Source of the DNA: Gammaproteobacteria bacterium
GTDB lineage: Bacteria > Pseudomonadota > Gammaproteobacteria > Eutrophobiales > Eutrophobiaceae
Length of the DNA: 64,000 nucleotides
Reading direction: 5' to 3'
Assembly: GCA_965221455.1 (NCBI GenBank)
Contig: OZ244890.1
Coordinates: 2,238,507 to 2,302,506 of the forward strand
The translations under genes and the position numbers were made by a program. The notes under the pieces were generated by a model. The model made no database searches. It was not told the DNA's origin and saw only the letters and a program-made list of their open reading frames with translations. Below are positions 6,289-32,956 of the stretch, in pieces (positions within the stretch are counted from its first letter, which is position 1; every line of letters starts with the position of its first letter).

Positions 6289-6351
6289 TTGCGAGGCCTG
6301 AATTACAAAGTGTATTTTTAAAAATGTATAATTAACCAGATTTGGTGGATA

Positions 6352-7368: not shown

Positions 7369-7498
7369 ACGGTTTTCAGTATCTATGCGTGAATCGATAC
7401 TGATTTATGCCAGGGTATGAGTCTCAATACATAATATTTGTAAGGATATTTGATCTGAAATTTTGACGCTTGAATAGAAATAAGAGGGAAGGAAGAAC

Positions 7499-10400
7499 AT
7501 GAACAAAATAATTTCACCTATTGCCATTGATATGGGGGCGAAGAATACGGGGGTTTATCTTCAGCATTTTGAGCAAGGAGAAGATCCAACTACCAGCGGT
7601 AATAGTGCCGGGCGGACCATTGTGATTGACGGCGACAGTATTACCTGGTCACAGGTGAATAGAACACAGAAACGTCACCAGGTTAGAGGTAACAAAAGAC
7701 GCAAACTTGCCAAACGCTTGCTGCTGGTAATTCTAGGCAAATCTTATGGTATCTCCCCCACACGAGAGCAAGCAGATTTTCTGATGGGATTGATGAATCG
7801 GCGCGGTTATAACCGTTTAGTTGAGGACCTGGACGAGAAACTGATAAAACAACCCCTGGTTGCAGAGTATTTTGTAAAAAAACATGAGGATTTTTTCAAA
7901 AATCGCGATACCTTTTTCGATAATTTTATTGCATTGTCAAATGACATTGAAAAATGCAAAGCCCTCAAAGAGCAACTTATATTGTCGAAAAAAGAGGCAA
8001 AAAAAGCAGTAGATGACGACAAAGATGGTCAACAAGCATTCGCTGATGCGTATGACAACATGAAATCCGCTTTAGACAAGCAGATTAAGTCTGAAGATGA
8101 AGGGCACAAGCACCGTGAGGAGTATCTGAAAAATATCAAAAAGGATATTCAGGAGAATAGCTTACTCAATCCACTACTGAATGATGAATTAACCGCTGAA
8201 TGTATCGCTAATCTCATTGGTAACATCAGTAATTTACAGTTGCGGGTGTTGCGTAAATACTTTAATGACAAGCAGATGCAAAACAGTGATAAATGGCTAC
8301 CACAGAAACTGCATAAATTATTTTTCCGATGGATTCAAGGCTGGCACTGTAAGCAAGATGATGAAAAAGAGAAGCGTAATAAACTGTTGAAATTAAAGCA
8401 GCAGGATATTTTGAAAATTCTAGCCACATCTGCGCCTGAACTGACTATTCCACCCTACGAAGACCAGAACAACCGCATCAAGGAGACCATTAAGGATAAA
8501 ACCTTAAGGCTGAAACCATCTGCATTGGATAAGAAAATGAATAACTGGCTGGATATGACTCAAAAGATTGTGAAGCACTACTGTCTTCCGACTGACGACA
8601 GCCGTACTACAACTTTATTTTCTATCAATGAAAATATCGAGGACTGCACTCATAAAATGATACAAGGGGTATTAGATGATTATGAAAGCCGGAAATCAGC
8701 CAATATACTGCAAAGAATATTCGACCGGAGCAAATTCCTGGATCCTTACAAATTAAGGTTGTTATGTTCTCTTGATTCTTTAGAGCATGCCAAAGATGAC
8801 GCCAGGAAATCTTTGACCTTGTTAAAGCAACATATCGGTGACAACAATGCGCAAGCATTTATTTCACTTTGCAAATCCTACTATGCAGAAACAGAAATCG
8901 CCAGGCAGGGGTTGTGGTCAGATAACAAAGACAGTTTATTTTTTTGTTGCGACACCAATCCGCCACACAAAAGCAAGCTGCAACACAGGCTGGTCGGACA
9001 TATTGTTTGTAAAACACTATCAGAACCCGAATTAGAATCTTTCAAAAAAGATTGCTGGAGTGAAAAAATAACAGGCGCAAGGAAAACAGCCAAAAGCGTG
9101 GCAAAAAGCATAGAAGAAATTCGTAAAAAATACGGTAACGAATTTAATGATGTAATGAAAAGGATTAAACGCAGGGAATATGTGCTGAAAAGCAAACCCG
9201 AGGAAATTACAGAACAGCAAAAAAAAGGATGGGAAAAATATGAAGAAAAACATAAGAATGTAAAAACAGCGATTGAGGATGCTGCAAAAGTCGCTACACA
9301 TATCGCTGATTATTTCGAGCATGACGACGACAAGAAAGCGAAGTATGCTAACCCGTACAGCATTGCACAGTTGTACAACCATCTGGAAACGGATATTGGT
9401 GGATTCAGCAAAACCGATAGATATAACACCGAAGAAAATGCCTGGCGGAATGAAATCAGTGAAGAAATCCCTGAAAATAAAATTGCCAACGCGGTAAGAC
9501 TAACAAAAGACAGTGTACGCCCGTTTGATGGCATGTTGGGTCGCATACTGGAAAGGCAGGCATATGAAATCGCTCGGCATAAAATTGTTCAACTTGAAGG
9601 GTTGGGGATTGGTGAAAGTGGAGAAATGCTTATCCCCGTATTACTGGAACAAAATAAGTTTAAATTTGAAAAGAGTCTGCACGATATCAAAGGCGAAAAA
9701 AATGTTTCAACAAAAGCAAAAGACCGAGTCGAAGAAGGCGAGAAAAGACAACAAGAACAATGGGAAGATAAAGATAAACGGATCAAAGGAAATAAAATAT
9801 GTCCGTACACTGGCGAAACAATCGGTGTCGGCGAAATCGATCATATCATTCCTCAAGCTAAATCCAGGCAGCATGGCGATGTGGTATACAACTCCGAGGC
9901 TAATCTGCTTTATTGCTCGGGCAGGGGCAATCAAGAAAAAGGAGACAATAGATATTCTTTCGAGCAGTTAAATAGTGAGTATTTGCGAGAAGTTTTTGGT
10001 AATAAAAGTCCAGGAGACATAAAGCAGGAAATCCGACAGTTCATTAACAACCTGGATACAGATAATTTTTCCGGTTTTCATAATCTGGAAAGCCACGAGC
10101 AGAACTATCTGCGCCATGCCTTGTTTCTGCAAGACCTGGATGAGAAAACTTTCCCGTTACTTAATACTCGCTATAGAACTTTGGTCAATGGCACACAAGC
10201 GTATCTGGCTAAACTATTGGTTCGCGTATTAAGAGGCAAATATCCGAATGCAGAGTTCAAGGTGTATCAGATGGATGCACAGGAAGTCTCCAGGGTTCGG
10301 GATGTGTTGTGTAATAAGTACGAAGAATATAAAAAATCCGATAAACAACAAGGTGCCTTTTCCCATGTAATTGATGCGGCTATGGTGCTGGCGACCGCGC

Positions 10401-11872
10401 TACAAAACCAACAAGTGGCGGAAAGGCTGAAGACAGTAAATACAGTCGAGTTATCGGAGAATGCAGACTGGTTAAAAAAATTGTTGCCACAGGAAGCAAT
10501 AGTCCAACACATCAAGAGGAGAGCAAAATATCATAAGGATTTATCATCAACAAAAATTTTCAAGGAGACTATTTATGGCGAGCGATTTATGCCTGTTCTA
10601 CTGAATGATGGCAAACTTTTTTGTGGTTTTTCTCTGGATAATTGTATTGAAATTAATCCATTGATTAAAGGAGGTAAGGACGAAAATAAAAAGATAGAAA
10701 AGCAAAAGCGCGAGGACAACGAATATTTCAATCTGTTGAAAGAATTTTTATACACGGGTTCCACTCGGCGCAAAAACAAGGCATCGGTCAGTGGAAGTTT
10801 AGATGACTACCATGGAAAGTTTGGTTATTTGTCGGTGGATAAAAGCAAAGCATTGGCGCATTTACAAAAATGCGCCAAAGAAGTATGTGATGACGAGGAT
10901 ATTAAACAAGCAGAAGCATTGGAGGAGCTACGGTATTGTGTTGAAAAGAAAAATATCAAAAACTTGATTACCGGTAAGAAATTTATTTCCCAAAGTGACT
11001 TTGACAAATTTAAATTCGATATAGACGATATCACATTACCCGCTAAAGTAGATTGGGAAAGATTAATCAATTTTCCAGTCATAGACTGCCACGGTAAAAC
11101 CACCACAATGAAAACATGTTTCAGAGAACCGGCACAAGACTTTATTCCCCAGAAAAGTTGGGATAATTTATTCGAAGAATTTTTCCATACAAATAAAATG
11201 GAAAATTCAAACCATCATAAACGAGTACGAAAAGTATATTCCTTGCCGGTTATCTCCAGTCCATCAGGTGGGTTCAGAATCAAGCGAAAAAATCCCGTGA
11301 CCGGTGATGATGTCTATCAAGTAAGTGCCATTGAAAATAGTTACGCTTGTGGTTTTTCTCAAGATTCCGAAGGCAATATTGACATGAGCGAAAAAGGGAT
11401 TACTTTTGATCCTCAATTAAAATCCAGTGCTAATGTTGCCTATCTCGGGAAATCCGGCAAACCGCATATTGTGAAAAATTCGAATGATACCGATGTAGAA
11501 AAATTTGGTTCCTGCAGACGGGTAAATTTAGAGTCTGAGCATATTATGGAATGCAAGCTGACATTGGCAGAAGGTAAGCGGATTGATATTTCTATTATGG
11601 TTGGTAAATATCTCTTTAAGGAAATATGCGAATTTTCAGATATCAATTTTGACCAACCACCATCAAATCTTCAATTAGTATTTGAAGATGAAACAAAATG
11701 TAAGAAGTTTAAGCAACTATTGACAAAGAAAAAAATACCAATCCCAAGAATAGATAAGAATAAGGTGGGATTTGCTGTTCAATCCTTACCAAAAAAAGTA
11801 GAATTATCGTATCGAACATCTCTCACTGATCCTCTTCGAGACGCTTATAAATGCGGGGATCCGGTAACGTAG
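7499..11872 (+). CDS. cas9: Type II-B CRISPR-associated endonuclease Cas9
   Basis: 1457 aa. RuvC-I IAIDMGAKNTGV (Asp11, nt 7529-7531). Arg-rich bridge helix RTQKRHQVRGNKRRKLAKRLL. RuvC-II IPVLLEQNKF. HNH GEIDHIIPQAKS...NSEANLLYCSGRGNQEKGD (His782, nt 9842-9844). RuvC-III FSHVIDAAMV. Blocks LIGNISNLQLRVLRKYFNDK, TIPPYEDQNNR, VNGTQAYLAKLL and RKVYSLPVISS match Francisella novicida Cas9 as I recall it. Strong SD GGAAGGAAG upstream. Followed by cas1-cas2-cas4. Confidence 0.95.
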   Translation: MNKIISPIAIDMGAKNTGVYLQHFEQGEDPTTSGNSAGRTIVIDGDSITWSQVNRTQKRHQVRGNKRRKLAKRLLLVILGKSYGISPTREQADFLMGLMNRRGYNRLVEDLDEKLIKQPLVAEYFVKKHEDFFKNRDTFFDNFIALSNDIEKCKALKEQLILSKKEAKKAVDDDKDGQQAFADAYDNMKSALDKQIKSEDEGHKHREEYLKNIKKDIQENSLLNPLLNDELTAECIANLIGNISNLQLRVLRKYFNDKQMQNSDKWLPQKLHKLFFRWIQGWHCKQDDEKEKRNKLLKLKQQDILKILATSAPELTIPPYEDQNNRIKETIKDKTLRLKPSALDKKMNNWLDMTQKIVKHYCLPTDDSRTTTLFSINENIEDCTHKMIQGVLDDYESRKSANILQRIFDRSKFLDPYKLRLLCSLDSLEHAKDDARKSLTLLKQHIGDNNAQAFISLCKSYYAETEIARQGLWSDNKDSLFFCCDTNPPHKSKLQHRLVGHIVCKTLSEPELESFKKDCWSEKITGARKTAKSVAKSIEEIRKKYGNEFNDVMKRIKRREYVLKSKPEEITEQQKKGWEKYEEKHKNVKTAIEDAAKVATHIADYFEHDDDKKAKYANPYSIAQLYNHLETDIGGFSKTDRYNTEENAWRNEISEEIPENKIANAVRLTKDSVRPFDGMLGRILERQAYEIARHKIVQLEGLGIGESGEMLIPVLLEQNKFKFEKSLHDIKGEKNVSTKAKDRVEEGEKRQQEQWEDKDKRIKGNKICPYTGETIGVGEIDHIIPQAKSRQHGDVVYNSEANLLYCSGRGNQEKGDNRYSFEQLNSEYLREVFGNKSPGDIKQEIRQFINNLDTDNFSGFHNLESHEQNYLRHALFLQDLDEKTFPLLNTRYRTLVNGTQAYLAKLLVRVLRGKYPNAEFKVYQMDAQEVSRVRDVLCNKYEEYKKSDKQQGAFSHVIDAAMVLATALQNQQVAERLKTVNTVELSENADWLKKLLPQEAIVQHIKRRAKYHKDLSSTKIFKETIYGERFMPVLLNDGKLFCGFSLDNCIEINPLIKGGKDENKKIEKQKREDNEYFNLLKEFLYTGSTRRKNKASVSGSLDDYHGKFGYLSVDKSKALAHLQKCAKEVCDDEDIKQAEALEELRYCVEKKNIKNLITGKKFISQSDFDKFKFDIDDITLPAKVDWERLINFPVIDCHGKTTTMKTCFREPAQDFIPQKSWDNLFEEFFHTNKMENSNHHKRVRKVYSLPVISSPSGGFRIKRKNPVTGDDVYQVSAIENSYACGFSQDSEGNIDMSEKGITFDPQLKSSANVAYLGKSGKPHIVKNSNDTDVEKFGSCRRVNLESEHIMECKLTLAEGKRIDISIMVGKYLFKEICEFSDINFDQPPSNLQLVFEDETKCKKFKQLLTKKKIPIPRIDKNKVGFAVQSLPKKVELSYRTSLTDPLRDAYKCGDPVT

Positions 11873-11900
11873 CGATTGTGTCTATGCCGACATATTCCCC

Positions 11901-12887
11901 ATGCACGCCCACCTAACCCTAAGCGAATACGGCCAGTTTGTTGGTATTCGCAGTGAATGTTTGACAGTCAAGGAAGAGGGAGCAGTCAAGGAATATCCGC
12001 TTAATCGCATCAAAAGCATCCAGATTGCACGGCGTGGGGTGAGTTTTTCTTCCGATGTCATTATTGCATGCGCCAATCGCGGTATTAAATTATTTCTCAC
12101 CGATTTCAGGAATGAAGTGGTCGCCAGCTTATCGGGCACTCAGCAACACGCTGTGGTGCGCGTGCGTCAACAGCAATTCGCCTTTATCGACCGCCTCGAT
12201 ACCGCGACTTTGTCTGCGGTGATTATTGAAGGAAAAATCAACAACCAACGAGCTGTTTTACTGTACTTCAAAAAATACCACAGTGATAAAGCCGCATACA
12301 TTGACAACACAGCAGCGCAATTAAAAATGATTGCCCAACAAATCAAAACCAAATCATGGCAAAACTTTGATCATTGGCAGGATATTTTATTGGGACTGGA
12401 GGGACAGGCAGCGCACCTTTACTGGCAATGTCTGGTCGAGACAGCCTTGATGCCCGCCGGCTTCAAGAACAGGGTAGGGAGGCAAGCACAGGATGTCGGT
12501 AACAAGGCGTTAAATTACGGTTATGCCATCCTTTCTTCCTACGTGTGGAATGCCTTGTTGAATGCCGGGCTGGAACCCTATGCCGGTATTTTCCATGCAC
12601 AACGTGCTGGCAAACCCTCTCTGGTACTGGACATGATGGAAGAATATCGTGCGTGGGCGGTAGATCGAAATATTATCAAACAACGTAACGCATTACAGGA
12701 CACCGGTGAGTTGACACCGACCATCAAGAAAAAAATCATTGCTGATATCCATAAAACCTTCGCCACCCATTACCATTATCGCAAGCGCAAGATGCGTTTG
12801 GAAAGCATACTACAACGACAAATCTATCATCTTGCCGGTACGTTCTGCGGCGACAAGCGATATAAAGCCTATCATTTCAGGTGGTAG
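11901..12887 (+). CDS. cas1: CRISPR-associated endonuclease Cas1
   Basis: 328 aa, 28 nt after the cas9 stop. Typical Cas1 N-terminal beta domain (LTVKEEGAVKEYPLNRIKSIQIARRGVSFSSDVI) and C-terminal helical domain (ALNYGYAIL, MEEYRAWAVD). Confidence 0.92.
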   Translation: MHAHLTLSEYGQFVGIRSECLTVKEEGAVKEYPLNRIKSIQIARRGVSFSSDVIIACANRGIKLFLTDFRNEVVASLSGTQQHAVVRVRQQQFAFIDRLDTATLSAVIIEGKINNQRAVLLYFKKYHSDKAAYIDNTAAQLKMIAQQIKTKSWQNFDHWQDILLGLEGQAAHLYWQCLVETALMPAGFKNRVGRQAQDVGNKALNYGYAILSSYVWNALLNAGLEPYAGIFHAQRAGKPSLVLDMMEEYRAWAVDRNIIKQRNALQDTGELTPTIKKKIIADIHKTFATHYHYRKRKMRLESILQRQIYHLAGTFCGDKRYKAYHFRW

Positions 12888-12888
12888 C

Positions 12889-13197
12889 ATGGCACAGGCG
12901 AAATTATACAATGAGGTACTGGTCAGTTATGACATCACCGATACCAAACAACGCACCAGGTTATTCAACCAACTCAAAGACATCAGCCTGATCGCAATCC
13001 AGAAATCGGTATTCTGGGGATATTTAAACAAGGCTGAGGAAAACAGTGTGAAACGCCTGTTACGAGAGCACTGTGAGAAAACCGACAAGGCTTTTATCGC
13101 ACGGGTTAAATTAGCCGAACAGATCCGGAAAGATAACGGGATTGGGTATAACAAAACCGACTTTCCGCAGAAAATCGCCGAGTATCATGTCCTATAG
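12889..13197 (+). CDS. cas2: CRISPR-associated endoribonuclease Cas2
   Basis: ATG at 12889, one nt after the cas1 TAG. 102 aa, MAQAKLYNEVLVSYDITDTKQRTRLFNQLKDISLIAIQKSVFWGYL is a Cas2 ferredoxin-fold signature. The longer track ORF (12739) overlaps cas1 and is not used. Confidence 0.85.
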   Translation: MAQAKLYNEVLVSYDITDTKQRTRLFNQLKDISLIAIQKSVFWGYLNKAEENSVKRLLREHCEKTDKAFIARVKLAEQIRKDNGIGYNKTDFPQKIAEYHVL

Positions 13198-13768
13198 TTT
13201 ACCTGTGAGTTTGCTCCGGCAATATTGTTTCTGCCCGCGCATTCCCTATTTTCAGGAGCTGCTTAATCTCAATCCACCCCGTCCGGCATGGGTCAGGCAG
13301 GGGGAGGCGTTACATCGTCAACAAGAGAAAGTATTCAGGCACAGAACCTTACAACGCTTCAATCTGGTACAGGCACGGCAAGAGTTCAATGTATTTGTTA
13401 ACGCCGCTGAATTACGTATGCACGGGTTGATTGATAGCGTGCTGATCACCCCGCATGAAATCTATCCGCTGGAATTCAAATTAAGCGGACACAAACCGAC
13501 TCGTGGACAAATCATACAACTCACCGCCTACGCGATGGCGGCCGAACACCACTATAACCTGGCTTGTCGGCATGGATTTATGTTGTTTGAGCACAAGGGT
13601 AAAACCCATCCGATTACTTTCACGGCAGAACATAAAGCACAGGTGAAGCGCATTCGTGACCGTATTTTGGATGATTTGGAGCAATCCGTTCTGCCGGATA
13701 GTTCCGCGACACAAGCGCAATGCACCCAGTGCGAATATCTCAATCATTGTAACGATAGAGGATGGTAA
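13187..13768 (+). CDS. cas4: CRISPR-associated exonuclease Cas4 (RecB-like, 4-Cys)
   Basis: Start chosen at ATG 13187 (MSYSLPVSLLRQYCFCPRIPYF), overlapping the cas2 end by 11 nt. N-terminal Cys plus C-terminal CTQCEYLNHC cluster and IYPLEFK nuclease motif. Presence of cas4 defines subtype II-B. Confidence 0.88.
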   Translation: MSYSLPVSLLRQYCFCPRIPYFQELLNLNPPRPAWVRQGEALHRQQEKVFRHRTLQRFNLVQARQEFNVFVNAAELRMHGLIDSVLITPHEIYPLEFKLSGHKPTRGQIIQLTAYAMAAEHHYNLACRHGFMLFEHKGKTHPITFTAEHKAQVKRIRDRILDDLEQSVLPDSSATQAQCTQCEYLNHCNDRGW

Positions 13769-13784
13769 AAGGATTTTGTGGGAG

Positions 13785-13810
13785 AAAATTAAAACCCCGC
13801 CAGAGCGGGG
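13785..13810 (-). terminator. Rho-independent terminator of tracrRNA
   Basis: CCCCGC-tctg-GCGGGG on the minus strand, followed by TTTTAATTTT. The plus strand has no T-run after the stem, so it is not the cas4 terminator. Confidence 0.75.
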
Positions 13811-13894
13811 CACCATGCACAATGCAGATAGGTTTATCAATCTTTATTTTAGATGATTTCAGTGCATCAATTGTTGTTTAGGATGTGTCGATGC
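13787..13894 (-). ncRNA. tracrRNA: tracrRNA (predicted)
   Basis: Plus-strand 13856-13891 (ATTTCAGTGCATCAATTGTTGTTTAGGATGTGTCGA) is an imperfect inverted copy of the array repeat. A minus-strand RNA therefore carries an anti-repeat to GUUUCAGUUGCUAGUUUGUUGAUUUAGGAUGUGUCGG: 7 bp, bulge, 2 bp, internal loop, 6 bp, bulge, 14 bp. Downstream on the minus strand are AAUCAUCUAAAAUAAAGAUUGA (resembles the F. novicida tracrRNA nexus) and a terminator hairpin. The ends are predictions. Confidence 0.8.
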
Positions 13895-14013
13895 CAAGCC
13901 AGCTTAATAAAAAAATTCGCAAAATTCAACCTTTCCCGGCATTTTCATGATTTTCGCAAAAATACCAAAAAAAATCGCTATAAAGTCAGGCAAAATCAAT
14001 ACTTCATGATAGG
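13895..14013. other. AT-rich cas-proximal flank of the CRISPR array (candidate acquisition leader)
   Basis: About 120 bp, A/T-rich with poly-A runs, directly abutting repeat 1. The opposite array end carries the degenerate repeat. Confidence 0.45.
13901..13929 (-). promoter_or_regulatory. Predicted sigma70 promoter of tracrRNA
   Basis: Minus strand TTGAAT (13924-13929), 17 nt spacer, TAAGCT (13901-13906). Predicted start about 13894, a few nt upstream of the anti-repeat. Confidence 0.55.
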
Positions 14014-17000
14014 CCGACACATCCTAAATCAACAAACTAGCAACTGAAACTGCTTATCGACTGAATAAGAAAAAAATAATCTTTCCCCGACACATCCTAA
14101 ATCAACAAACTAGCAACTGAAACTGGTTAGTCTTTTTGACGTGGACTCGTCCATTGCCTCCGACACATCCTAAATCAACAAACTAGCAACTGAAACGAGT
14201 CTGACCATCCGCCCTGCCAAACCTTCCACCTGTGCCGACACATCCTAAATCAACAAACTAGCAACTGAAACGGTCTTCGACAAGGAGCTGAACAGATTTA
14301 AGACTTCCGACACATCCTAAATCAACAAACTAGCAACTGAAACGAATCTCTGTAAGAGTAGCCGCACTCAAAAAACAAACCGACACATCCTAAATCAACA
14401 AACTAGCAACTGAAACCGTGAATATCATCATCACCCGTGATGAGTTTTTAGGACCGACACATCCTAAATCAACAAACTAGCAACTGAAACTCATGCAAGC
14501 TGGTAATCAATCAAAGTTCATGGACCGACACATCCTAAATCAACAAACTAGCAACTGAAACTTGGTTCCCACGTGTCAATCGCATCTATGATCAGCCGAC
14601 ACATCCTAAATCAACAAACTAGCAACTGAAACTTGTTTGGTGATGGCTGCAGCACTTGCCCCGACATCCGACACATCCTAAATCAACAAACTAGCAACTG
14701 AAACTCGGATCCCGGTAGTAGACTTTAACATCTCGTGTCCGACACATCCTAAATCAACAAACTAGCAACTGAAACAACACCGATCACATCACCATTAAAC
14801 TGCCCGTATCCGACACATCCTAAATCAACAAACTAGCAACTGAAACCTTGCAGACTGCTACGGAACCTGTCCCATGCGTTGCCGACACATCCTAAATCAA
14901 CAAACTAGCAACTGAAACCGCCCATGTCGAGATTGTGAGACTTGCATATAATAGCCGACACATCCTAAATCAACAAACTAGCAACTGAAACCTGGGTGAT
15001 GGATGAGGGTCACCACCTCTTACGCCGACACATCCTAAATCAACAAACTAGCAACTGAAACCACGGTCGTATATTTGCGGAGCTGAGGAAGCAGCCGACA
15101 CATCCTAAATCAACAAACTAGCAACTGAAACTTCGGGTAGATTTTCATGCAGGTTAATCATGCCCCGACACATCCTAAATCAACAAACTAGCAACTGAAA
15201 CTGCGCCTCTTGTTTTTTATCGCTCGTCGTTTATCCCGACACATCCTAAATCAACAAACTAGCAACTGAAACGTGTTCGTCCTGAAACTCTGAAAGTAAC
15301 TCAATGTCCGACACATCCTAAATCAACAAACTAGCAACTGAAACCTACTGACTATAATCGACAACCTCCCCTGTACTCCCGACACATCCTAAATCAACAA
15401 ACTAGCAACTGAAACAATTCCACTGCATTTCTAAAATCTGCTGGACTTCTCCGACACATCCTAAATCAACAAACTAGCAACTGAAACGGCTAAGTGGTTG
15501 GCATTGGGTTAAGCGTTTTGCACCGACACATCCTAAATCAACAAACTAGCAACTGAAACCAGCTACTACAATGCCAGGCAACCTGACCTTTAACCGACAC
15601 ATCCTAAATCAACAAACTAGCAACTGAAACCACGAAATGCCTCGCAAACTCTGCACATCTCTCAAACCGACACATCCTAAATCAACAAACTAGCAACTGA
15701 AACGTTGATGTTATTGTCTTAACGTCCATTAAATGAGTCCCGACACATCCTAAATCAACAAACTAGCAACTGAAACTTGTCATTGATTAAAGCCGTCTTC
15801 CCCCTGTGAGGCCCGACACATCCTAAATCAACAAACTAGCAACTGAAACCTGAACATCTCTTCATAACTTATCAACTTGCCTTCCGACACATCCTAAATC
15901 AACAAACTAGCAACTGAAACTGAGGTTTTTGTTGTCATGTTTTTGACTCAGCACCGACACATCCTAAATCAACAAACTAGCAACTGAAACAGAGGGTTAC
16001 CAATTCCCCCAAGGCCGCCCAAAACCGACACATCCTAAATCAACAAACTAGCAACTGAAACTGTAAACCCTTGAAAAAATTAAGTTAAATTTAAATCCGA
16101 CACATCCTAAATCAACAAACTAGCAACTGAAACTAATCGATTCGATATGTGTTTTGGTGAAAGTTGTGCCCGACACATCCTAAATCAACAAACTAGCAAC
16201 TGAAACCATGAACGTTCACTCTCAGAGGTCACCGGTTAGCACCCGACACATCCTAAATCAACAAACTAGCAACTGAAACAAACGGCCGTACAAGAAGCGC
16301 ATGTACTTGCCTGCCGACACATCCTAAATCAACAAACTAGCAACTGAAACTCACGAATATGACATCAGTCGTTACGGCGGTCGGTACCGACACATCCTAA
16401 ATCAACAAACTAGCAACTGAAACCAAAAATCCTGTTTGTCCGCACCTTATCCAAGTTTCCGACACATCCTAAATCAACAAACTAGCAACTGAAACTTCGC
16501 CGCCGGGATTTACTCAGATGATGATTACGTCCGACACATCCTAAATCAACAAACTAGCAACTGAAACACCGCCAGAAGAAAATCATGCTGGCGACAATTA
16601 CGCCGACACATCCTAAATCAACAAACTAGCAACTGAAACCAAAATATGCCGGATCGCGCATGAACCGCGCTGCACCGACACATCCTAAATCAACAAACTA
16701 GCAACTGAAACTTGAAAAAGAGCCGCCAGACAGCGAGATCCTATCTCCCGACACATCCTAAATCAACAAACTAGCAACTGAAACAACAAAGGCACTGTAA
16801 CCCTGTCCATTCGCCGACACCGACACATCCTAAATCAACAAACTAGCAACTGAAACTGAGTTTGATACCACAAGTCATTATGTCTAAGGCACCGACACAT
16901 CCTAAATCAACAAACTAGCAACTGAAACCAAGATACTTATGATTAGCAACGGTTGTATAGTATCCGACACATCCTAAATCAACAAACTAGCAACTGAAAC

Positions 17001-19016
17001 ACGGCAGAAAGCGTTTTAAAGTCGCCAGTACCAGTCCGACACATCCTAAATCAACAAACTAGCAACTGAAACTGGTCTAAAACTGCACGAAGCAATCTTA
17101 CATAGGTACCGACACATCCTAAATCAACAAACTAGCAACTGAAACGCAAATAAACAATGACTAAAAGTACCAGAAGGTAGCCGACACATCCTAAATCAAC
17201 AAACTAGCAACTGAAACAGGCGTTGAATTTGCTTTTCTAGTCGGTATTGAGGCCGACACATCCTAAATCAACAAACTAGCAACTGAAACGATGAGGCACA
17301 TTATCTGTACAATATCCTCCCCAGTCCGACACATCCTAAATCAACAAACTAGCAACTGAAACCTGACTACGCGGAGAAAGGCGCACAGATAGTAGTCCGA
17401 CACATCCTAAATCAACAAACTAGCAACTGAAACACAGTTTATACAAACGCAGAATACTGGGAGAATCACCCGACACATCCTAAATCAACAAACTAGCAAC
17501 TGAAACTGAACTTTTTTCATATCTATCACCTTTTTTAACTCCGACACATCCTAAATCAACAAACTAGCAACTGAAACTGAACCTTTTTCATCATCATCAC
17601 CTATTTTTAATTCCGACACATCCTAAATCAACAAACTAGCAACTGAAACGTGTGCCTTTCGTCTGTACCTGCCAGAAACTCGCCCGACACATCCTAAATC
17701 AACAAACTAGCAACTGAAACTCGAGCTGGCATCACACAAGTAAGTTCTTCAATGAGCCGACACATCCTAAATCAACAAACTAGCAACTGAAACAATGTGG
17801 TTAGGCTGGCTGATGGGAGCTATAAGACCGACACATCCTAAATCAACAAACTAGCAACTGAAACAAACTCGAAGCGTGGGCATTGCTTGCGCCGCCGAAC
17901 CGACACATCCTAAATCAACAAACTAGCAACTGAAACAGAGAATCCTCCCAGTACCCCGCTTAGAGGCAAGCCGACACATCCTAAATCAACAAACTAGCAA
18001 CTGAAACTGGTCTAACACTGCACGAAGCAATCTTACATAGGTCCGACACATCCTAAATCAACAAACTAGCAACTGAAACTGGAAGTGCTTCACAGCTTCA
18101 CAGGCGAGAGGGTTTCCCGACACATCCTAAATCAACAAACTAGCAACTGAAACTCCTAGTGGCGGAGCAATTAGATACCGACAACCGCTCCGACACATCC
18201 TAAATCAACAAACTAGCAACTGAAACTCCGCTGTTGTTGATCCGGTTGTGACTTCTGCACGGCCGACACATCCTAAATCAACAAACTAGCAACTGAAACA
18301 CAGCGACTGAGCCGGGGGTTTCAGTGCCTTGGCGCCGACACATCCTAAATCAACAAACTAGCAACTGAAACTTTAGGTCGATATAAGAGTATTGAAAATC
18401 TCGAAACCGACACATCCTAAATCAACAAACTAGCAACTGAAACTTTTAAGTTTAAATTAATCCCTATAACACCAACCACCGACACATCCTAAATCAACAA
18501 ACTAGCAACTGAAACTCTCCATACTCGGTAGTGTCATCTTGCATTTCGTCCGACACATCCTAAATCAACAAACTAGCAACTGAAACTTTTATAGTTCTGC
18601 TCAAAATAAGCCGGATCACGCCCGACACATCCTAAATCAACAAACTAGCAACTGAAACTTCACTTTATTCATCAAGCCTTCAAAAGTAACCCCCGACACA
18701 TCCTAAATCAACAAACTAGCAACTGAAACGGTCAAAGGCATCACCGCCGCGTGAGAGTTTACCCCCCGACACATCCTAAATCAACAAACTAGCAACTGAA
18801 ACTGAAATTGCCCCCGATGCTTTGGTTGTAGAAGCTCCCGACACATCCTAAATCAACAAACTAGCAACTGAAACCGGGACAAATAAACCAATGCACATCT
18901 TAACAGTACCGACACATCCTAAATCAACAAACTAGCAACTGAAACCCAGTCACTCATCATGAGCCTGTTCATAAATCTGCCGACACATCCTAAATCAACA
19001 AACTAGCAACTGAAAC
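14014..19016 (-). CRISPR. CRISPR array, 70 identical 37-nt repeats with 69 internal spacers of 33-38 nt (type II-B repeat)
   Basis: Plus-strand repeat CCGACACATCCTAAATCAACAAACTAGCAACTGAAAC. Repeat starts were tallied by hand from 14014 to 18980 with unit period 70-75 bp, and I noticed no repeat variants. The minus-strand form GTTTCAGTTGC... matches the 5-prime end of the F. novicida crRNA repeat and pairs with the predicted tracrRNA, hence minus strand. Confidence 0.97.
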
Positions 19017-19050
19017 GCGGACACTTGACATCTATTCAAGTTAAAAAAGA

Positions 19051-19087
19051 GCGACATATCTGAAATAAAAAAAGCCCCGCATCAGCG
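19051..19087. repeat. Degenerate terminal CRISPR repeat
   Basis: GCGACATATCTGAAATAAAAAAA matches 17 of the first 23 repeat positions, and the last 14 positions (GCAACTGAAAC part) are lost. It is separated from repeat 70 by a 34-nt spacer (19017-19050) and overlaps the terminator hairpin. Confidence 0.7.
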
Positions 19088-26052: not shown

Positions 26053-26637
26053 ATGAAAAAACTTGAACGTAAGGATCTTTGGTCACTTGAGGAATATGCG
26101 GAAAAGCGTAACGACTTCAAAAGTAAAGTGATTGCATATAAAAAGAATCGTCAATTAGTCGTCGGTCCCAATGCAACATTCTATCTTGAAGACAGGCTTA
26201 CGATTCAATATCAAATTCAGGAAATGCTCCGTATTGAACGTATTTTTGAAGCTGCAGCAATTGATGAAGAATTAACCGCTTATAATCCCCTGATTCCCGA
26301 CGGCAGTAACTGGAAAGCCACGCTAATGATAGAGTTTGCTGACGAGGCGGAAAGAAGAATTGCCCTGGCAAAAATGAAAAATCTTGAAGATACTGTCTGG
26401 ATGAAGGTTGATGGACATGAGAAAATAGTGCCTTTTGCAAACGAGGATATGCAAAGAAGTAACGATGAGAAGACTTCAGCAGTGCATTTTCTTCGGTTCG
26501 AGCTGGACAAGGAGATGATTGTATCCTTGAAAAGCGGAGTCAATTTATCAGCGGGGATAACGCATCCGGCATATCACCACATCGTTAATGTCGTTAATAC
26601 TGAAGTGAAGGAATCGTTACTGGCGGACCTGGATTAA
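26053..26637 (+). CDS. DUF3501 family protein
   Basis: Start at ATG 26053 (MKKLERKDLWSLEEY), 5 nt after the Fe-S gene stop. Rubrerythrin / Fe-S protein / DUF3501 is a recurrent triad as I recall it. The family call is from memory. Confidence 0.6.
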   Translation: MKKLERKDLWSLEEYAEKRNDFKSKVIAYKKNRQLVVGPNATFYLEDRLTIQYQIQEMLRIERIFEAAAIDEELTAYNPLIPDGSNWKATLMIEFADEAERRIALAKMKNLEDTVWMKVDGHEKIVPFANEDMQRSNDEKTSAVHFLRFELDKEMIVSLKSGVNLSAGITHPAYHHIVNVVNTEVKESLLADLD

Positions 26638-26654
26638 ATAGCGATGCTCTACTA

Positions 26655-26850
26655 ATTCCCCTCCCCCTTACCAGGGGGAGAGCTTTTGATACGGGACACT
26701 CTTTTACTGTCACTACACAATGCAGGTTGTAGTGGTCCAGTATGGCATGTGATAGTAATAGGTAGACTATAATTTGGACATGAGGAAGCATCAAATGCTG
26801 ACAAAAACACGTAAACACACCACCCCACTGGTGCTTGTGCAACAAGCACC
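26655..26850 (+). mobile_element. IS3-family left-end remnant with truncated orfA N-terminus
   Basis: G/C palindrome CCCTCCCCCTTACCAGGGGGAG, TTTTACTGTCACT (26702) and TGTAGTGGTC (26728-26737) recur at 30952/30988 in front of a recognisable IS3 orfA. The short reading frame here, MLTKTRKHTTP, parallels MTKERKHFTP of that orfA. Confidence 0.55.
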
Positions 26851-26851
26851 A

Positions 26852-27095
26852 GCACCGCAGCACCGCAGCACCGCAGCACCGCAGCACCGCAGCACCGCAG
26901 CACCGCAGCACCGCAGCACCGCAGCACCGCAGCACCGCAGCACCGCAGCACCGCAGCACCGCAGCACCGCAGCACCGCAGCACCGCAGCACCGCAGCACC
27001 GCAGCACCGCAGCACCGCAGCACCGCAGCACCGCAGCACCGCAGCACCGCAGCACCGCAGCACCGCAGCACCGCAGCACCGCAGCACCGCAGCAC
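26852..27095. repeat. Perfect octanucleotide microsatellite (GCACCGCA) x30 plus a partial unit
   Basis: 30 uninterrupted 8-bp units at 26852-27091 plus GCAC. All six frames are open across it, which explains the pile of repetitive ORFs in the track. It ends 58 nt before the ATG of the large secreted protein. Confidence 0.97.
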
Positions 27096-27153
27096 TAGCG
27101 CACTAACGCAGACCGCGCCACTACCAGGAACCTGGTCAGGGGCATGGCGCGGG

Positions 27154-30100
27154 ATGACGGCAGTCATGGCCGCCGTTGCCCTGCTGGCGGTATTGGCAAG
27201 CCCGGCGGCACGGGCGCAATCCGATGACTGGGGCGAATGGAGTACGGCGAATATCACCGACAAGAACCAGACACGCACCTGTAATGCCGGGACGGGCAAC
27301 ACGTGTATGAATGCCTACGGGGGCGGCACCACCAACCACGGCGGCACCGAGACCCGTCCGAGTCTGACCTTTTGGAATAACTATCTCCTCAACGGCCCGG
27401 CTGGGCATACCAATGCGACGGAAAGAAGAGGCGGGGTTGACGTCACAGGCGTAACCATCTCCCGCAACAACAGCGATGGTCGACTACAAGTCCAGAGTGT
27501 TATTTCTGGGAGCGGCTCCATTGACCCCCCATCTCTATTCATCACAACCGGGCAGGCGACCCCGAGCACCGGCACACTCTTACGGTTCGGCGAACAAAGT
27601 ATTATAGACCTGAAGTCCGGACTGTCCCGTCCGAACCTCACATGGGTGCCTATCTCGGGGGATGGCAGGGTGATTTACCGTCCGTCCGTCGGCACCGAGA
27701 TGGTCTTATTGGAGACTTTATGTACCGCCAGCGGTGATTTAAGGGTGCGCTCGGGGCAAACCAGCGACACCGAACAAACCGTACAAGCCAACTCGTTGCT
27801 GTGCAATATCGGGGCGAGTGCCTCGGCAATCACCAGGCAAGCCATCGGTGAACTGAGTGCCACCGATAACTATATTTATACTAATAACTGGGGCGACTGG
27901 AGTGCGGGCAATATCAACGACAAGAACCAGACGCGCACCTGTAATGCCGGGACGGGCAACACGTGTGTCAATTTCTACACTAGAGGCACCACCAACCACG
28001 GGGGCGCCGAGGCCCGTCCGAGTGAGACCTTTTGGGAGAACTATCTCCTCAACGGCCCGGCCGGGTATACCAATGCGACGGAGGCAAACGGTGTAGACAT
28101 CACAAGCATGACATTCGCCCGCAACAACGACGATGGTCGGCTGGGATTAAGGGCGATCGGAGTCTCCGGCATCTCAAACTATTTACCTATTGAATACATC
28201 ACTACCGAGCAGGTGACCCCAAGTACCGGAATACTGTTCACGGTAACAGGCGCTGGCTTGAATATAACCCTCAAGTCCGGCCTGACCCGTCCGAACCCCT
28301 CATGGACCGCTATCCCGGGGCCGGGCGTCTTGTTTTACCGACCGTCCGCCAACAACGCGGTGGTCTTGGTGGACACTTCATGTACCGCCACCGGTGATTT
28401 AAGGGTCCGCTCGGGGACCACGTCCGGCACCGAACGCACCGTACAAGCCAACTCGCTGCTGTGCAATACCGGAGCGAGTGCCGCAGCCATCACCAGGCAA
28501 GCCATCGGTGAACTGAGTGCCGCCGACAACTATATTTATTCCGCAGATGGCTGGGACGACTGGAGTGCGGCCAATATCACCGACAAGAACCAGACACGCA
28601 CCTGTAATGCCGGGACGGGCAACACTTGTCCCAATGCCTACGGCAGCACCACCACCAACCACGGCGGCACCGAGACCCGTCCGAGTGAGACCTTCTGGCG
28701 CAACTATCTCGTCAACGGCCCGGCCGGGCATACCAATGCGACAAACTACGGTAGTGATGACATCACAAGCGTGGTACTCACCCGCAATAACAGCGATGGT
28801 CGGCTGCAATTAACGGGCATTGATACCACTGGCGGCACAGTCACGCTTACAACCCCTCGATTCATCACAACTGGGCGAGAGACCCCGAATAGCGGAACAC
28901 TGTTCGTGACAGGCCCTACCAATATAGTCCTGAAGTCCAACCTGTCCCGTCCGAACCTCTCATGGACCGCTATCCCGGGATCGGGAATCGTGTTTTACCG
29001 ACCATCCGGCAGCAACAGGGTGCGCTTATTGGACAGTTCATGTACCGCCAGCGGTGATTTAAGAGTGCGCTCGGGGACCACGACCAACACCGAACAAACC
29101 GCACAAGCCAACTCGCCGCTGTGCAATATCGGAGCGAGTGTCGCAGCCATCACCAGGCAAGTCATCGGTGAACTGAGTGCCACCGACAACTATATTTATG
29201 CGGTGCCCGCGACATTAGGTGCCATCCAGGACAGTACCCCCAACACCCCGGCCAGGGTCGATGATATCTTGACCGCCGGTGCGCTGAGCCATCCCACGTT
29301 GACCGTCAATATCAACGCCCATCAATGGCAACGCTGTACCACTCAAGACTGTAGCAACGCAACAGATATCAGCCAGAATGGCACAGCAGCGACCTACGCG
29401 GTGCAAGCGGCGGACCATGCTCACTGGCTGCGGGTGCGTGTCACTCAGGGCGGGGATTTCAACGACACCCTGTTCTCCAATAGCGTACAGGTTGACCGTG
29501 GCGGTGTGCTCGGTCCCATCACCGGCAATGCCAGAGCAGGCGGCACGCTGACGGCGGGCGCGGTCACCGACGCGGACGCCTCACCGAATACCGATGTCGG
29601 TACCATTACCTGGCAATGGCAGACAGCGACCGTCTCGGCGGGTCCGTTTACCGCCGCACCGGGGACGAATAATACCGCCACGTACACGATTGCATCAGAC
29701 CAATCACAGATAGGCACGTGGTTGCGCGTGATGGCGAGTTATCCGAATGCGGGAGGCGATAGCCTGACGTCCGACCCGGTAGTGGTTGCGGGTGTGCGGG
29801 TGTCGCCGACCGCGCTGAATGTCACCGAAGGGGGTGACAGCACCAGCTATACCCTGATGCTGGGCAGCCGACCGACAGGGCCGGTAACGCTGACCGTGAC
29901 CAATCCCGATGCCACTGCGGTGACCCTCAGTGCCACCTCACTGACGTTTACCACAGACAACTGGAACAGTGCCCGGACGGTGACGGTGAGTAGTGTTGAG
30001 GATACGGATACAGACCACGAGACCGTGCAACTCACGCATACGGCGACAAGTACGGACCCTGGCTACAATGGGGCTGCTGTGACGATAGACTCCGTGGCTG

Positions 30101-30789
30101 TGACCTTGAATGATAACGACGGCCCGGGCGTGTCCGTGAGTTCCACGACGCTGACAGTCCATGAGCGTGGTGGGACTGGCATGTATACGCTGCGCCTGAA
30201 TACCCCACCGACGGAAGCAGTGACGATTAGCGTGACCCATTCCAATGCCGCTGCTGCGACGGTGAGTCCCACCTCACTGATGTTTAGCGCCACCGACTGG
30301 AATACCGCCAAAACCATCACCGTGACGGGAGTGGAAGACGCTGATACAGACGACGAGACCGTGCAACTCACGCATACGGTGACCAGTACCGACACCACCT
30401 ATCGTACCGTCACGGCGGCCACCGTAACCGTGACGGTGACGGAGATGGCGGCGGTGAGTCTTGATGTGGATGGCAGCGGTGGTGATCCCAACCAGAGTGA
30501 CGGACTCTTGCTGGGCCGCTACCTGTTTGGTATTCGTGATGCGGCGGGCTTGCTTGATACCATTCCGGGGAGTCCCTCGGCCAGTGCGGTCACGGCGAAT
30601 ATTGCGGGAGCTTTCGCCAGCGGTCGTCTTGATGTGGATGGCAGCGGCGGCGATCCCAACCAGAGTGACGGACTCTTGCTGGGCCGCTATCTGTTTGGTA
30701 TTCGTGATGAGGTGGGCCTGCTTGATACCATTCCGGGCAATCCCTCGTTCAATGCGGTAAGGACGAATATCGAGGCACTTTTGCGGTAG
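27154..30789 (+). CDS. Large secreted repeat protein (adhesin-like): 3 x ~220-aa Cys-containing modules, Ig-like region, 2 Calx-beta-like domains, 2 dockerin/EF-hand-like Ca-binding repeats
   Basis: 1211 aa. Sec signal MTAVMAAVALLAVLASPAARA/Q. Three modules start with W-G-[ED]-W-S...DKNQTRTCNAGTGNTC. LTFTTDNWNSARTVTVSSVEDTDTDHETVQLTH type domains occur twice. C-terminal LDVDGSGGDPNQSDGLLLGRYLFGIRD occurs twice. GC content is far above the flanks. Confidence 0.85.
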   Translation: MTAVMAAVALLAVLASPAARAQSDDWGEWSTANITDKNQTRTCNAGTGNTCMNAYGGGTTNHGGTETRPSLTFWNNYLLNGPAGHTNATERRGGVDVTGVTISRNNSDGRLQVQSVISGSGSIDPPSLFITTGQATPSTGTLLRFGEQSIIDLKSGLSRPNLTWVPISGDGRVIYRPSVGTEMVLLETLCTASGDLRVRSGQTSDTEQTVQANSLLCNIGASASAITRQAIGELSATDNYIYTNNWGDWSAGNINDKNQTRTCNAGTGNTCVNFYTRGTTNHGGAEARPSETFWENYLLNGPAGYTNATEANGVDITSMTFARNNDDGRLGLRAIGVSGISNYLPIEYITTEQVTPSTGILFTVTGAGLNITLKSGLTRPNPSWTAIPGPGVLFYRPSANNAVVLVDTSCTATGDLRVRSGTTSGTERTVQANSLLCNTGASAAAITRQAIGELSAADNYIYSADGWDDWSAANITDKNQTRTCNAGTGNTCPNAYGSTTTNHGGTETRPSETFWRNYLVNGPAGHTNATNYGSDDITSVVLTRNNSDGRLQLTGIDTTGGTVTLTTPRFITTGRETPNSGTLFVTGPTNIVLKSNLSRPNLSWTAIPGSGIVFYRPSGSNRVRLLDSSCTASGDLRVRSGTTTNTEQTAQANSPLCNIGASVAAITRQVIGELSATDNYIYAVPATLGAIQDSTPNTPARVDDILTAGALSHPTLTVNINAHQWQRCTTQDCSNATDISQNGTAATYAVQAADHAHWLRVRVTQGGDFNDTLFSNSVQVDRGGVLGPITGNARAGGTLTAGAVTDADASPNTDVGTITWQWQTATVSAGPFTAAPGTNNTATYTIASDQSQIGTWLRVMASYPNAGGDSLTSDPVVVAGVRVSPTALNVTEGGDSTSYTLMLGSRPTGPVTLTVTNPDATAVTLSATSLTFTTDNWNSARTVTVSSVEDTDTDHETVQLTHTATSTDPGYNGAAVTIDSVAVTLNDNDGPGVSVSSTTLTVHERGGTGMYTLRLNTPPTEAVTISVTHSNAAAATVSPTSLMFSATDWNTAKTITVTGVEDADTDDETVQLTHTVTSTDTTYRTVTAATVTVTVTEMAAVSLDVDGSGGDPNQSDGLLLGRYLFGIRDAAGLLDTIPGSPSASAVTANIAGAFASGRLDVDGSGGDPNQSDGLLLGRYLFGIRDEVGLLDTIPGNPSFNAVRTNIEALLR
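27223..29199 (+). repeat. Three tandem ~660-bp intragenic repeats
   Basis: Units start at 27223, 27883 and 28543. Long identical nucleotide runs such as GACAAGAACCAGAC(A/G)CGCACCTGTAATGCCGGGACGGGCAACAC appear in each. Confidence 0.9.
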
Positions 30790-30840: not shown

Positions 30841-31206
30841 CACTTGTGCATGGCTAAACTCGGGAAAGCTGAGGCACAGGCACTAACAACCCCCTCCCCC
30901 CTGCGGGGTACTCCCCCTTGGCAGGGGGAGAGCTTTTAGGGCGGGAAATGCTTTTACTGTCACTCAACTTTGTCGGCTAACTCACTATGTAGTGGTCTAA
31001 TAAATCCGTACCAGGTGATAGGTGATGAAATCACATACTCATGGAGGTACGGCTCATGACAAAAGAACGAAAACACTTTACACCTGAGTTTAAACAAGAT
31101 GCTGCCTTGTCTGGTAGTAGACCAGGACTACAGCATCAAAGAAGCCTGTCCAGTTGAGCAATTAAGCACGCACTATCGTCAAAGTGACGGCGATGATTGT
31201 CAGTAG
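30841..31206 (+). pseudogene. IS3-family left end with frameshifted orfA
   Basis: Repeat block with G/C palindrome, TTTTACTGTCACT, TGTAGTGGTC (30988-30997), then ATG 31056 MTKERKHFTPEFKQDAA. A frameshift precedes LVVDQDYSIKEAC, with an early stop at 31204-31206. Confidence 0.7.
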
Positions 31207-31625
31207 CCAGCAGGGCTTATCGCAACAGTCACCTCGTCATTCCTGCGGAAGCAGGAATCCAGGTGCTGATTGCAACTCGTCTGAATTGCTTCGCTAAAGC
31301 TCTCCCCCTGCCAAGGGGGAGGGGGTTGCAGGGGGGAGGGAATGACGACTTACAACATCACCACAAACAATACAGACATTACCGCAACCAGCTTCCAGCA
31401 TTCCATGTGACCGCCTGAAAGCATCAACCCCTGCCGTCATTGCGAGCAAAGCGAAGCAATCCAGTAAACTTTAAAGATAAGTCAGGATACCTTGAAATAT
31501 TTGAAGATATGCAAAATGCCATTGCCAGAGAAAAATAAATTAAAGCTGACTCCCGCAAAAAGAAACCTGCCCTGATTGAAAAACACAATCCGGAATGGAA
31601 CGATTTATATGAAGATATTGTTTAA

Positions 31626-32105
<480 letters not shown>

Positions 32106-32515
32106 AAACAACCTATCGACTGGTACGGAAATACCTGACCACTTTACCAGGGGGGAGTACCCCGCAGGGGGAGGGGGTTGCAGGGGGGAGGGAATGACGA
32201 CTTACAACATCACCACAAACAATACAGACATTACCGCAACCAGCTTCCAGCATTCCATGTGACCGCCTGAAAGCATCAACCCCTGCCGTCATTGCGAGCA
32301 AAGCGAAGCAATCCAGTAAACTTTAAAGATAAGTCAGGATACCTTGAAATATTTGAAGATATGCAAAATGCCATTGCCAGAGAAAAATAAATTAAAGCTG
32401 ACTCCCGCAAAAAGAAACCTGCCCTGATTGAAAAACACAATCCGGAATGGAACAATTTATATGAAGATATTGTTTAATCTGGATTGCTTCGCTTTGCTCG
32501 CAATGACGGTGCTGA

Positions 32516-32956
<441 letters not shown>

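Follow-up and report, generated by a model that had tools for sequence, protein, structure and literature searches.

In the lic1A and lic2A genes of Haemophilus influenzae, a 5' tract of CAAT units lies just past the start codon or codons, and its copy number picks the in-frame ATG, giving on, low or off states. In the opa genes of Neisseria, the repeat tract is located in the region that encodes the leader (signal) peptide. The unit of the opa tract is a CTCTT/CTTCT pentamer, which is present in 11-12 copies in gonococcus (PMC5953494). Here, we describe a T-free octanucleotide tract in a 64,000-nucleotide stretch of contig OZ244890.1 (hereafter, the window means this whole stretch), which comes from an uncultured gammaproteobacterium. 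The tract lies between a short leader reading frame and the signal-peptide-like start of a 1211-aa gene, and we estimate a probability of roughly 65% that, in the 5' coding region of this surface-protein gene, it forms the hypermutable part of a translational phase-variation switch. As judged from sequence comparison and from analogy with the systems above, the mechanism is most likely classic slipped-strand translational phase variation of the opa kind, operating in an orphan, lineage-restricted protein family.

The arrangement of a leader ATG and an internal ATG at our locus may be comparable to that of lic1A and lic2A, although those are single genes with a tetranucleotide tract that encode cytoplasmic enzymes of lipopolysaccharide biosynthesis. 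As is proposed for the present genes, each copy of the opa surface multigene family carries in its 5' coding region a repeat whose unit length cannot be divided by 3, and slippage that shifts the frame, independent switching of the copies and recombination among paralogues would be shared as well (PMC5953494). In contrast to opa, the units here measure 8 or 7 nt instead of 5 and reach about 36 copies, and the genes number at least 25; the tract precedes the hydrophobic core and, instead of encoding it, specifies a hydrophilic extension; and the proteins are unrelated giant orphans of an uncultured gammaproteobacterium, not 8-strand beta-barrels of a human pathogen. No Opa match was found in Pfam, NCBIfam or PDB, and unit and position differ, indicating that the protein is not a member of the Opa family. 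The large adhesin genes hmw1A and hmw2A of H. influenzae carry, at one position, 7-bp repeats in nontypeable H. influenzae and 8-bp repeats (GCATCATC x12-15) in biogroup aegyptius (PMC3309571), an alternation of 7 and 8 that is also seen between the paralogues described here. The hmw repeats are reported to lie in the promoter or the 5' untranslated region (5'-UTR) and to grade transcription or mRNA processing (PMC8262952, PMC12721329), whereas the tract described here comes after a conserved start codon and shows features of a coding frame. The vlhA genes of Mycoplasma gallisepticum are similar in family size and in having one short-repeat tract per gene; they form a very large variable surface family in which each gene has a GAA tract that controls expression, but the tract acts transcriptionally from upstream of the promoter and its unit is a multiple of 3 (PMC6258824). 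Furthermore, TAACTGA heptamer arrays of Beggiatoaceae, Cyanobacteria and Bacteroidetes (up to 43 copies, mostly 2-6) are direct repeats just before start codons in environmental bacteria, including Thiotrichales relatives, but they hold stops (TAA, TGA), are intergenic and were proposed to be regulator-binding sites (PMC4679880). Neisseria tracts include 7-mers of up to 26 copies and 9-mers of up to 25 copies (PMC5953494), and the hmwA genes of biogroup aegyptius have 8-mers (PMC3309571). Since units of 7-9 nt at 25-43 copies are documented (PMC5953494, PMC4679880), a tract of 30-36 octamers is long but not unprecedented. Thus, the original prediction, which had been made from the letters of the window and called the tract unusual for bacteria, was right in that the tract lies at the long end, but not in so far as it implied a lack of precedent.

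We characterized the tract and its frames on the window sequence (coordinates are given in Table 1). Tandem Repeats Finder reported a period-8 repeat of 30.8 copies with 100% matches and no indels, and a regular-expression search gave exactly (GCACCGCA)x30 at 26852-27091, which agrees with the 30 uninterrupted 8-bp units predicted originally; the perfect period-8 identity extends further, over 246 nt. The composition of the tract is A62 C123 G61 T0, and a perfect 246-nt tract is beyond what chance can produce. The frame of ATG 26780 (position mod 3 = 2) ends at the stop 27104-27106, and the frame of ATG 27154 is stop-free back to 26815, with no ATG, GTG or TTG between. Copy-number changes from -6 to +6 units were then simulated. 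At n-1, n+2, n-4 and n+5 the upstream ATG became fused to the large open reading frame (ORF), giving 1333 aa at n-1, whereas n+1, n-2 and their equivalents led to a stop at TAG 27096, and n and n+/-3 to a stop at TAA 27104. The unit length of 8 is no multiple of 3, and a change in copy number accordingly toggles between in-frame and prematurely stopped states in the simulation; as sequenced, the leader of the window copy is out of frame with the 1211-aa gene. All of the frame logic that had been proposed was thereby reproduced, namely an upstream frame that reads through the tract to 27104-27106, a gene frame open backwards to 26815, fusion on loss of one unit or gain of two, and termination at 27096-27098 or 27104-27106 for the remaining copy numbers. 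The TATAAT at 26768-26773 and the ATG at 26780 are both present in the sequence as well. However, the placement of the start at 26780 needs correction, because the ATG conserved in the family is that at 26795 (MLTKTRKH..., with GAGGAAG before it); the frame arithmetic stands since the two ATGs share one frame. At GAGGAAG, the duplex energy with the anti-Shine-Dalgarno (SD) sequence was -6.3 kcal/mol, compared with a mean of -2.95 kcal/mol at 16 gene starts of the window.

The sense strand of the tract was less structured than shuffled sequence (z +2.2). Instability driven by a hairpin was considered and rejected, as only the antisense strand folds (-14.7 kcal/mol), no better than its shuffles. 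Likewise, minus-strand ORFs across the tract (26652-27302 and others) were discarded as repeat artefacts. The promoter scan found no promoter-like site between the tract and ATG 27154, and no Rfam family was found in 26400-27400 or elsewhere in the 64-kb window.

To compare the 5' module across the family, we used comparator DNA from five contigs of the ENA assembly ERZ25072283, with coverages of 1.4-4x (L001, L164 and L165), 26x (L002) and 2.6x (L166). Six loci were thus available: the window, L001, L002, genes 1 and 2 of L164, and L165. At each of them the order is the same, with a leader ATG (MLTK or MLIK), the tract, off-frame stops, a linker open in the gene frame, and the signal-peptide sequence. 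The tract consists of GCACCGCA, GCACCACA or the heptamer ACGCACC, or is missing, depending on the paralogue, and all unit types are T-free, so that a stop or start codon is impossible in every frame. Moreover, units of 8 and 7 nt are coprime to 3, and one cyclic peptide therefore results from all three frames. The window copy (GCACCGCA x30.75) has a leader-to-signal-peptide frame difference of 2 and is out of frame, as is L001 (GCACCGCA x35.75; difference 1), in which the post-tract sequence is identical to that of the window. Among the loci with ACGCACC, L002 (x7.3) and L164 gene 1 (x2.3) have a difference of 0 and are in frame, the former as a 1521-aa fusion, while L164 gene 2 (x7.3) and L165 (x14.3) have a difference of 2 and are out of frame. 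Hence, frame differences of 0, 1 and 2 are all represented among the six DNA loci. The gene frame is stop-free from leader to signal peptide in 6/6 loci, and each of the other two frames has 1-4 stops. In L002 and the loci of octamer type, the two off-frame stops lie no more than 11 nt past the tract, whereas L164 and L165 have one within 6-7 nt and the other not until 51-56 nt. When the post-tract sequence was shuffled with dinucleotides preserved, a fraction of 0.003-0.027 of the shuffles combined a stop-free gene frame with stops in both other frames within 20 nt, a combination that the window, L001 and L002 show.

A protein search gave about 20 paralogues with 64-89% identity on one contig of 2,504,188 bp and a few more in ERZ25072283. 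A cluster look-up added five, which brings the family to at least 25 paralogues in one 2.5-Mb genome; this number is a lower bound on the family size in the source genome. No match was obtained when genome contigs were scanned for the family, nor when Joint Genome Institute (JGI) metagenome contigs were scanned with the family profile. Among the 25 source-genome proteins, 11 begin with the MLTK leader fused in frame, a proportion that would be close to the one third expected from free switching plus locked-on copies. The remaining 14 were called from internal methionines by gene callers, and the paralogues have a conserved WRGM, or an R close by, ahead of the annotated Met. In P0017, APQHHSTT x11 corresponds to about 33 units of GCACCACA in frame, and P0010 has a degenerate version of this type of tract. 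P0007 has the leader type of the window with the tract cleanly deleted and the frame kept (...QQAP/LPGTWQGAWRGM...), and P0007, P0020 and P0042 all lack a tract and are permanently fused. P0002 and P0037, which are in the same genome and more than 90% identical, differ by HHAPRTT, that is 21 nt or three heptamers. Four members (P0032, P0036, P0021 and P0022) are fragmentary. The proposal that the locus is a contingency locus is thus supported by the recurrence of the module in paralogues, the variety of tracts, the three frame states and the 11 in-frame fusions.

The mature parts of P0003 (from L001) and P0035 are more than 90% identical but their 5' modules differ. More generally, in the pairs L001/P0035 and L002/L164, mature parts of more than 90% identity are joined to 5' modules of the octamer type without extension versus the heptamer or extension type. 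The presence of the same mature part on different 5' modules suggests that recombination or gene conversion shuffles the switch modules.

A similar layout was also found outside the family. Three unrelated contigs (L160, L105 and L112) have an ATG, (GCACCRCA)5-7, two off-frame stops and a signal-peptide core, with the off-frame stops within 3-56 nt of the tract in all three and within 16 nt in L160. L160, which encodes a 979-aa metalloprotease-like protein (6272-9368), is the clearest case because its hydrophobic core lies upstream of its first in-frame Met; the core of L105 is lipobox-like. GCACCRCA tracts are scattered in 78 metagenome contigs. These comparisons suggest that T-free octamer tracts in the n-regions of signal peptides may be a recurrent design.

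Taken together, these features are consistent with the following switch. Translation would start at the conserved leader ATG 26795, downstream of the terminator-like hairpin at 26661 that precedes the module, and the ribosome would cross the T-free tract, which offers no stop or start in any frame and would be read as APQHRSTA in all three. The copy number modulo 3 would then decide the outcome. In one phase, the ribosome would read on via the linker through the signal-peptide core and into the 1211-aa protein, and we infer that this fused form is the expressed one (ON); it would carry a basic, disordered N-terminal extension that stays cytoplasmic and is cleaved off at the AxA site. In either of the remaining phases, the ribosome would meet TAG or TAA right after the tract, and expression would presumably be off or low. 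Slipped-strand mispairing in replication would gain or lose 8-nt units and so move the gene between phases, at a rate that, like the promoter, is a presumed part of the scheme. The window copy would be in the OFF phase and would turn ON if it lost one unit or gained two. The same module, with an octamer, a heptamer or no tract, appears to be present in at least 25 paralogues, and independent switching of so many copies would give combinatorial surface variation in the population.

Several points weigh against this scheme. The promoter scan returned no + strand promoter that passed its criteria, so that TATAAT at 26768-26773 is a candidate -10 box of a presumed promoter. The SD energies of the leader ATG and of ATG 27154 (-5.7 kcal/mol) do not discriminate between the two, and most genes of the host genome have weak SD sequences; internal initiation may take place in every phase, in which case the switch would modulate expression or toggle between isoforms. 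It is also unusual for a Sec signal to lie behind an extension of 30-230 aa. An open gene frame over the linker of about 212 nt is by itself not rare (P about 0.19) in such T-poor sequence. In addition, all of the tract-length differences are between paralogues or between different loci. L002 and L166 are one locus assembled twice, with a 7.3-unit tract in both, and differ by single-base homopolymer indels only, without a change in unit count; given these homopolymer errors in L166, some frame calls from the 1.4-4x contigs could be wrong.

The equally good SD-like match at the internal ATG would also suit a switch of inverted polarity or a pair of isoforms, in which the internal ATG (27154 or 27166) is the normal start and the fused phase buries the signal and reduces or redirects export. 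Sec signals are normally N-terminal, the hydrophobic core starts right after the internal ATG, and the gene callers' choice of an internal Met in 14 paralogues points in the same direction. Nevertheless, we regard this arrangement as unlikely, since nothing would then hold the 113-430-nt linker open, whereas all six loci and 11 proteins have it open; an n-region that begins at 27154 would have no positive charge, the conserved R (WRGM) being upstream; and P0007, P0020 and P0042 are permanently fused and have no tract. Another explanation, that the tract is a variable DNA or RNA spacer in a promoter or 5'-UTR which tunes transcription or mRNA stability, with the upstream ORF being incidental, has a precedent in the hmwA genes, whose upstream repeats are of 7 or 8 bp by lineage (PMC3309571), in parallel to the octamer and heptamer alternatives of the present family. 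A non-coding spacer would not be expected to have T-free units, paired off-frame stops, an open gene frame and 11 in-frame fusions, however, and the leader ATG and first codons are conserved directly before every tract type. With no Rfam element in 26400-27400 either, we consider a spacer role very unlikely.

Neutral expansion of a microsatellite in a recombining, partly decaying family, with a tract that mutates without a selected role, would account for the four fragmentary members, for the insertion sequence (IS) remnants that flank the gene and for the sporadic GCACCRCA tracts in metagenome contigs. We judge it quite unlikely, as the 3.6-kb ORF is intact, the architecture of the module is conserved over divergent 5' types and has independent counterparts in other bacteria, and the long tracts are perfect and degenerate only in some copies (P0010), which is the pattern of maintained contingency tracts. 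Finally, long perfect repeats are error-prone in assembly and the low-coverage comparator contigs do carry indel errors, but it is scarcely credible that the tract is an assembly artefact: the 246-bp tract lies inside a single contig of 2.5 Mb, the GCACCGCA unit occurs at a different length in an independent contig (L001), another paralogue of the same genome has a roughly 33-unit GCACCACA tract in frame, and the errors between L002 and L166 are in homopolymers, not in unit count.

The 1211-aa protein has three N-terminal modules of about 220 aa, Ig-like repeats in the middle and two dockerin-like repeats at the C-terminus, and the internal repeats D5, D6 and D9 lie in its gene. The three copies of the 220-aa module (27154-29200) have the conserved motif W.xWSxxNITDKNQTRTCNAG.GNTC. 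Weak, sub-threshold matches to fn3_6 were all that Pfam and NCBIfam gave for the protein, and a weak dockerin match (1ohz_B, E=0.14) was the only one in the PDB sequence search. No Pfam, NCBIfam, PDB or fold match explains the N-terminal module, for which the AlphaFold2 model was poor (pLDDT 61.6) and Foldseek gave nothing meaningful. When a profile of this module was run against 1.84 billion representative proteins, five clusters came up, of which four could be identified as family members, indicating that as far as sequence comparison reaches the module is an orphan, lineage-restricted one. The GC content of the ORF is 58-60%, compared with roughly 42% in the window, and its GC at third codon positions (GC3) is 0.67, compared with 0.39-0.44 in neighbouring genes. 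The high GC3 suggests either that the gene is of foreign origin or that gene conversion has been GC-biased among the 25 or more recombining copies of the family.

The start codon of the leader had been proposed to be a remnant of the orfA gene of an IS3 element. A decayed IS3 copy lies 4.2 kb downstream of the 5' flank of the window locus, and the flank (26661-26818) is collinear with 30911-31076 through a 54-nt element, the IS3 left end (TGTAGTGGTC...) and the orfA start. The hairpin at 26661-26680 opens the 54-nt element, of which the second copy at 30911-30964 is 83% identical (direct repeat D11). Within 26728-26818, the collinear blocks are TGTAGTGGTC (13/15), GTGATAG (9/10) and TGACAAAA..ACG.AAACAC (17/20), and the orfA start MTKERKHFTP of the IS3 corresponds to MLTKTRKHTTP of the window leader. 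Local alignment of the 5' flank with the IS3 left end gave a score of 18, whereas shuffled sequences averaged 9.2 (p about 0.001). For the orfA remnant of the IS, the match to HTH_Tnp_1 (E=6e-4) does not reach the Pfam cut-off; the orfB remnant (31632-32105) matches rve, and the leader peptide had no Pfam match. Alignments of the 5' flanks of L001, L002 and L165 with the IS3 left end were non-significant. Thus, an IS3 origin of the start codon is moderately supported and plausible for the window copy, but it is unproven for the family, since no significant IS3 likeness was found in the 5' flanks of the other module types.

The motif CTTTTACTGTCAC has 6 copies in the window, compared with 1.5 expected. 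It is part of a dispersed element that resembles a repetitive extragenic palindrome (REP), with a G/C hairpin, AGCTTTT and CTTTTACTGTCAC, at 23464, 26701, 30951, 33246 and 55667(-). Copies of this REP-like element lie directly before the IS3 left end and directly before the 5' module of the surface-protein gene, and the element may be an insertion target. Within the decayed IS3, two pairs of 100% identical 300-nt direct repeats (31314-31613 = 32166-32465 and 31710-32009 = 32561-32860) are 851-852 nt apart, which represents a recent tandem duplication (31314-32860).

Table 1. Features of the phase-variation candidate locus and its flanks, in window coordinates.
Feature	Position	Strand	Remark
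Terminator-like hairpin CTCCCCCTTACCAGGGGGAG followed by AGCTTTT (26661-26680), after the DUF3501 gene	26661-26714	+	Terminator scan
Collinear segment to the decayed IS3 (30988-31076; left end and first codons of orfA)	26728-26818	+	Holds TATAAT 26768-26773
SD-like GAGGAAG, 6 nt before ATG 26795	26782-26788	+	Sequence
Leader start codon and about 18 leader codons (MLTKTRKHTTPLVLVQQAP), conserved in the family	26795-26849	+	ATGYTGAYAAA conserved in L001, L002, L164 and L165
Octanucleotide tract, perfect, T-free, 30.75 units of GCACCGCA	26850-27095	+	Cyclic APQHRSTA encoded in every frame
Frame trap: TAG 27096-27098 and TAA 27104-27106, one per non-gene frame	27096-27106	+	Identical layout in L001, equivalent in L002
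Post-tract linker, open in the gene frame (...SALTQTAPLPGTWSGAWRG)	27096-27153	+	Sole positive charge adjoining the hydrophobic core
Predicted signal-peptide-like hydrophobic core and AxA site (MTAVMAAVALLAVLASPAARA/Q)	27154-27216	+	Read from the translation; DNA nearly invariant across loci
1211-aa secreted/surface protein gene	27154-30789	+	ORF; intact
Second copy of the 54-nt element, then left end and frameshifted orfA start (ATG 31056, MTKERKHFTPEFKQDAA) of the decayed IS3	30911-31130	+	Comparator for the origin of the leader

Upstream of the locus are genes for a rubrerythrin, a CCG-domain protein and a DUF3501 protein, and the decayed IS3 follows the 1211-aa gene. The window also holds the topoisomerase IV genes and has no tRNA genes. 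Its ParC shares at most 87% identity with gammaproteobacterial metagenome-assembled genomes (MAGs) and 71% with a Thiotrichaceae MAG, which marks the host as an uncultured gammaproteobacterium. Further upstream, a type II-B CRISPR-Cas locus (7499-19060) comprises a Csx12-type Cas9 of 1457 aa (7499-11872), Cas1 (11901-12887), Cas4 (13142-13768) and a CRISPR array (14013-19060) with about 70 repeats of 37 nt (CCGACACATCCTAAATCAACAAACTAGCAACTGAAAC), which had no Rfam match at the gathering threshold.

On the scale of the genome, we tentatively put forward, at somewhat less than even odds, that roughly 4% of the 2.5-Mb genome is given to at least 25 giant lineage-specific surface proteins, each with an IS3-derived start codon and a T-free hypermutable tract of 7- or 8-nt units. 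If true, this would be among the largest of all known repeat-switched surface repertoires, and one found outside classical host-adapted pathogens, and it would indicate that phage, grazers or an unknown host exert strong fluctuating selection on the cell surface of an environmental bacterium. T-free octamers in the n-regions of signal peptides would then be a recurrent design that is so far undescribed.

Repeat-driven phase variation has been studied almost wholly in host-adapted pathogens and commensals, and here an opa-like logic appears in an uncultured gammaproteobacterium. If the switching is real, gene callers misplace the true starts of such genes, as in the 14 of 25 paralogues, and metagenomes could be searched for a clean signature in which a start codon is followed by a T-free tract with a unit length not divisible by 3, by a pair of off-frame stops and by a signal peptide. 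Combinatorial surface variation would then also be a strategy of environmental or symbiotic bacteria.

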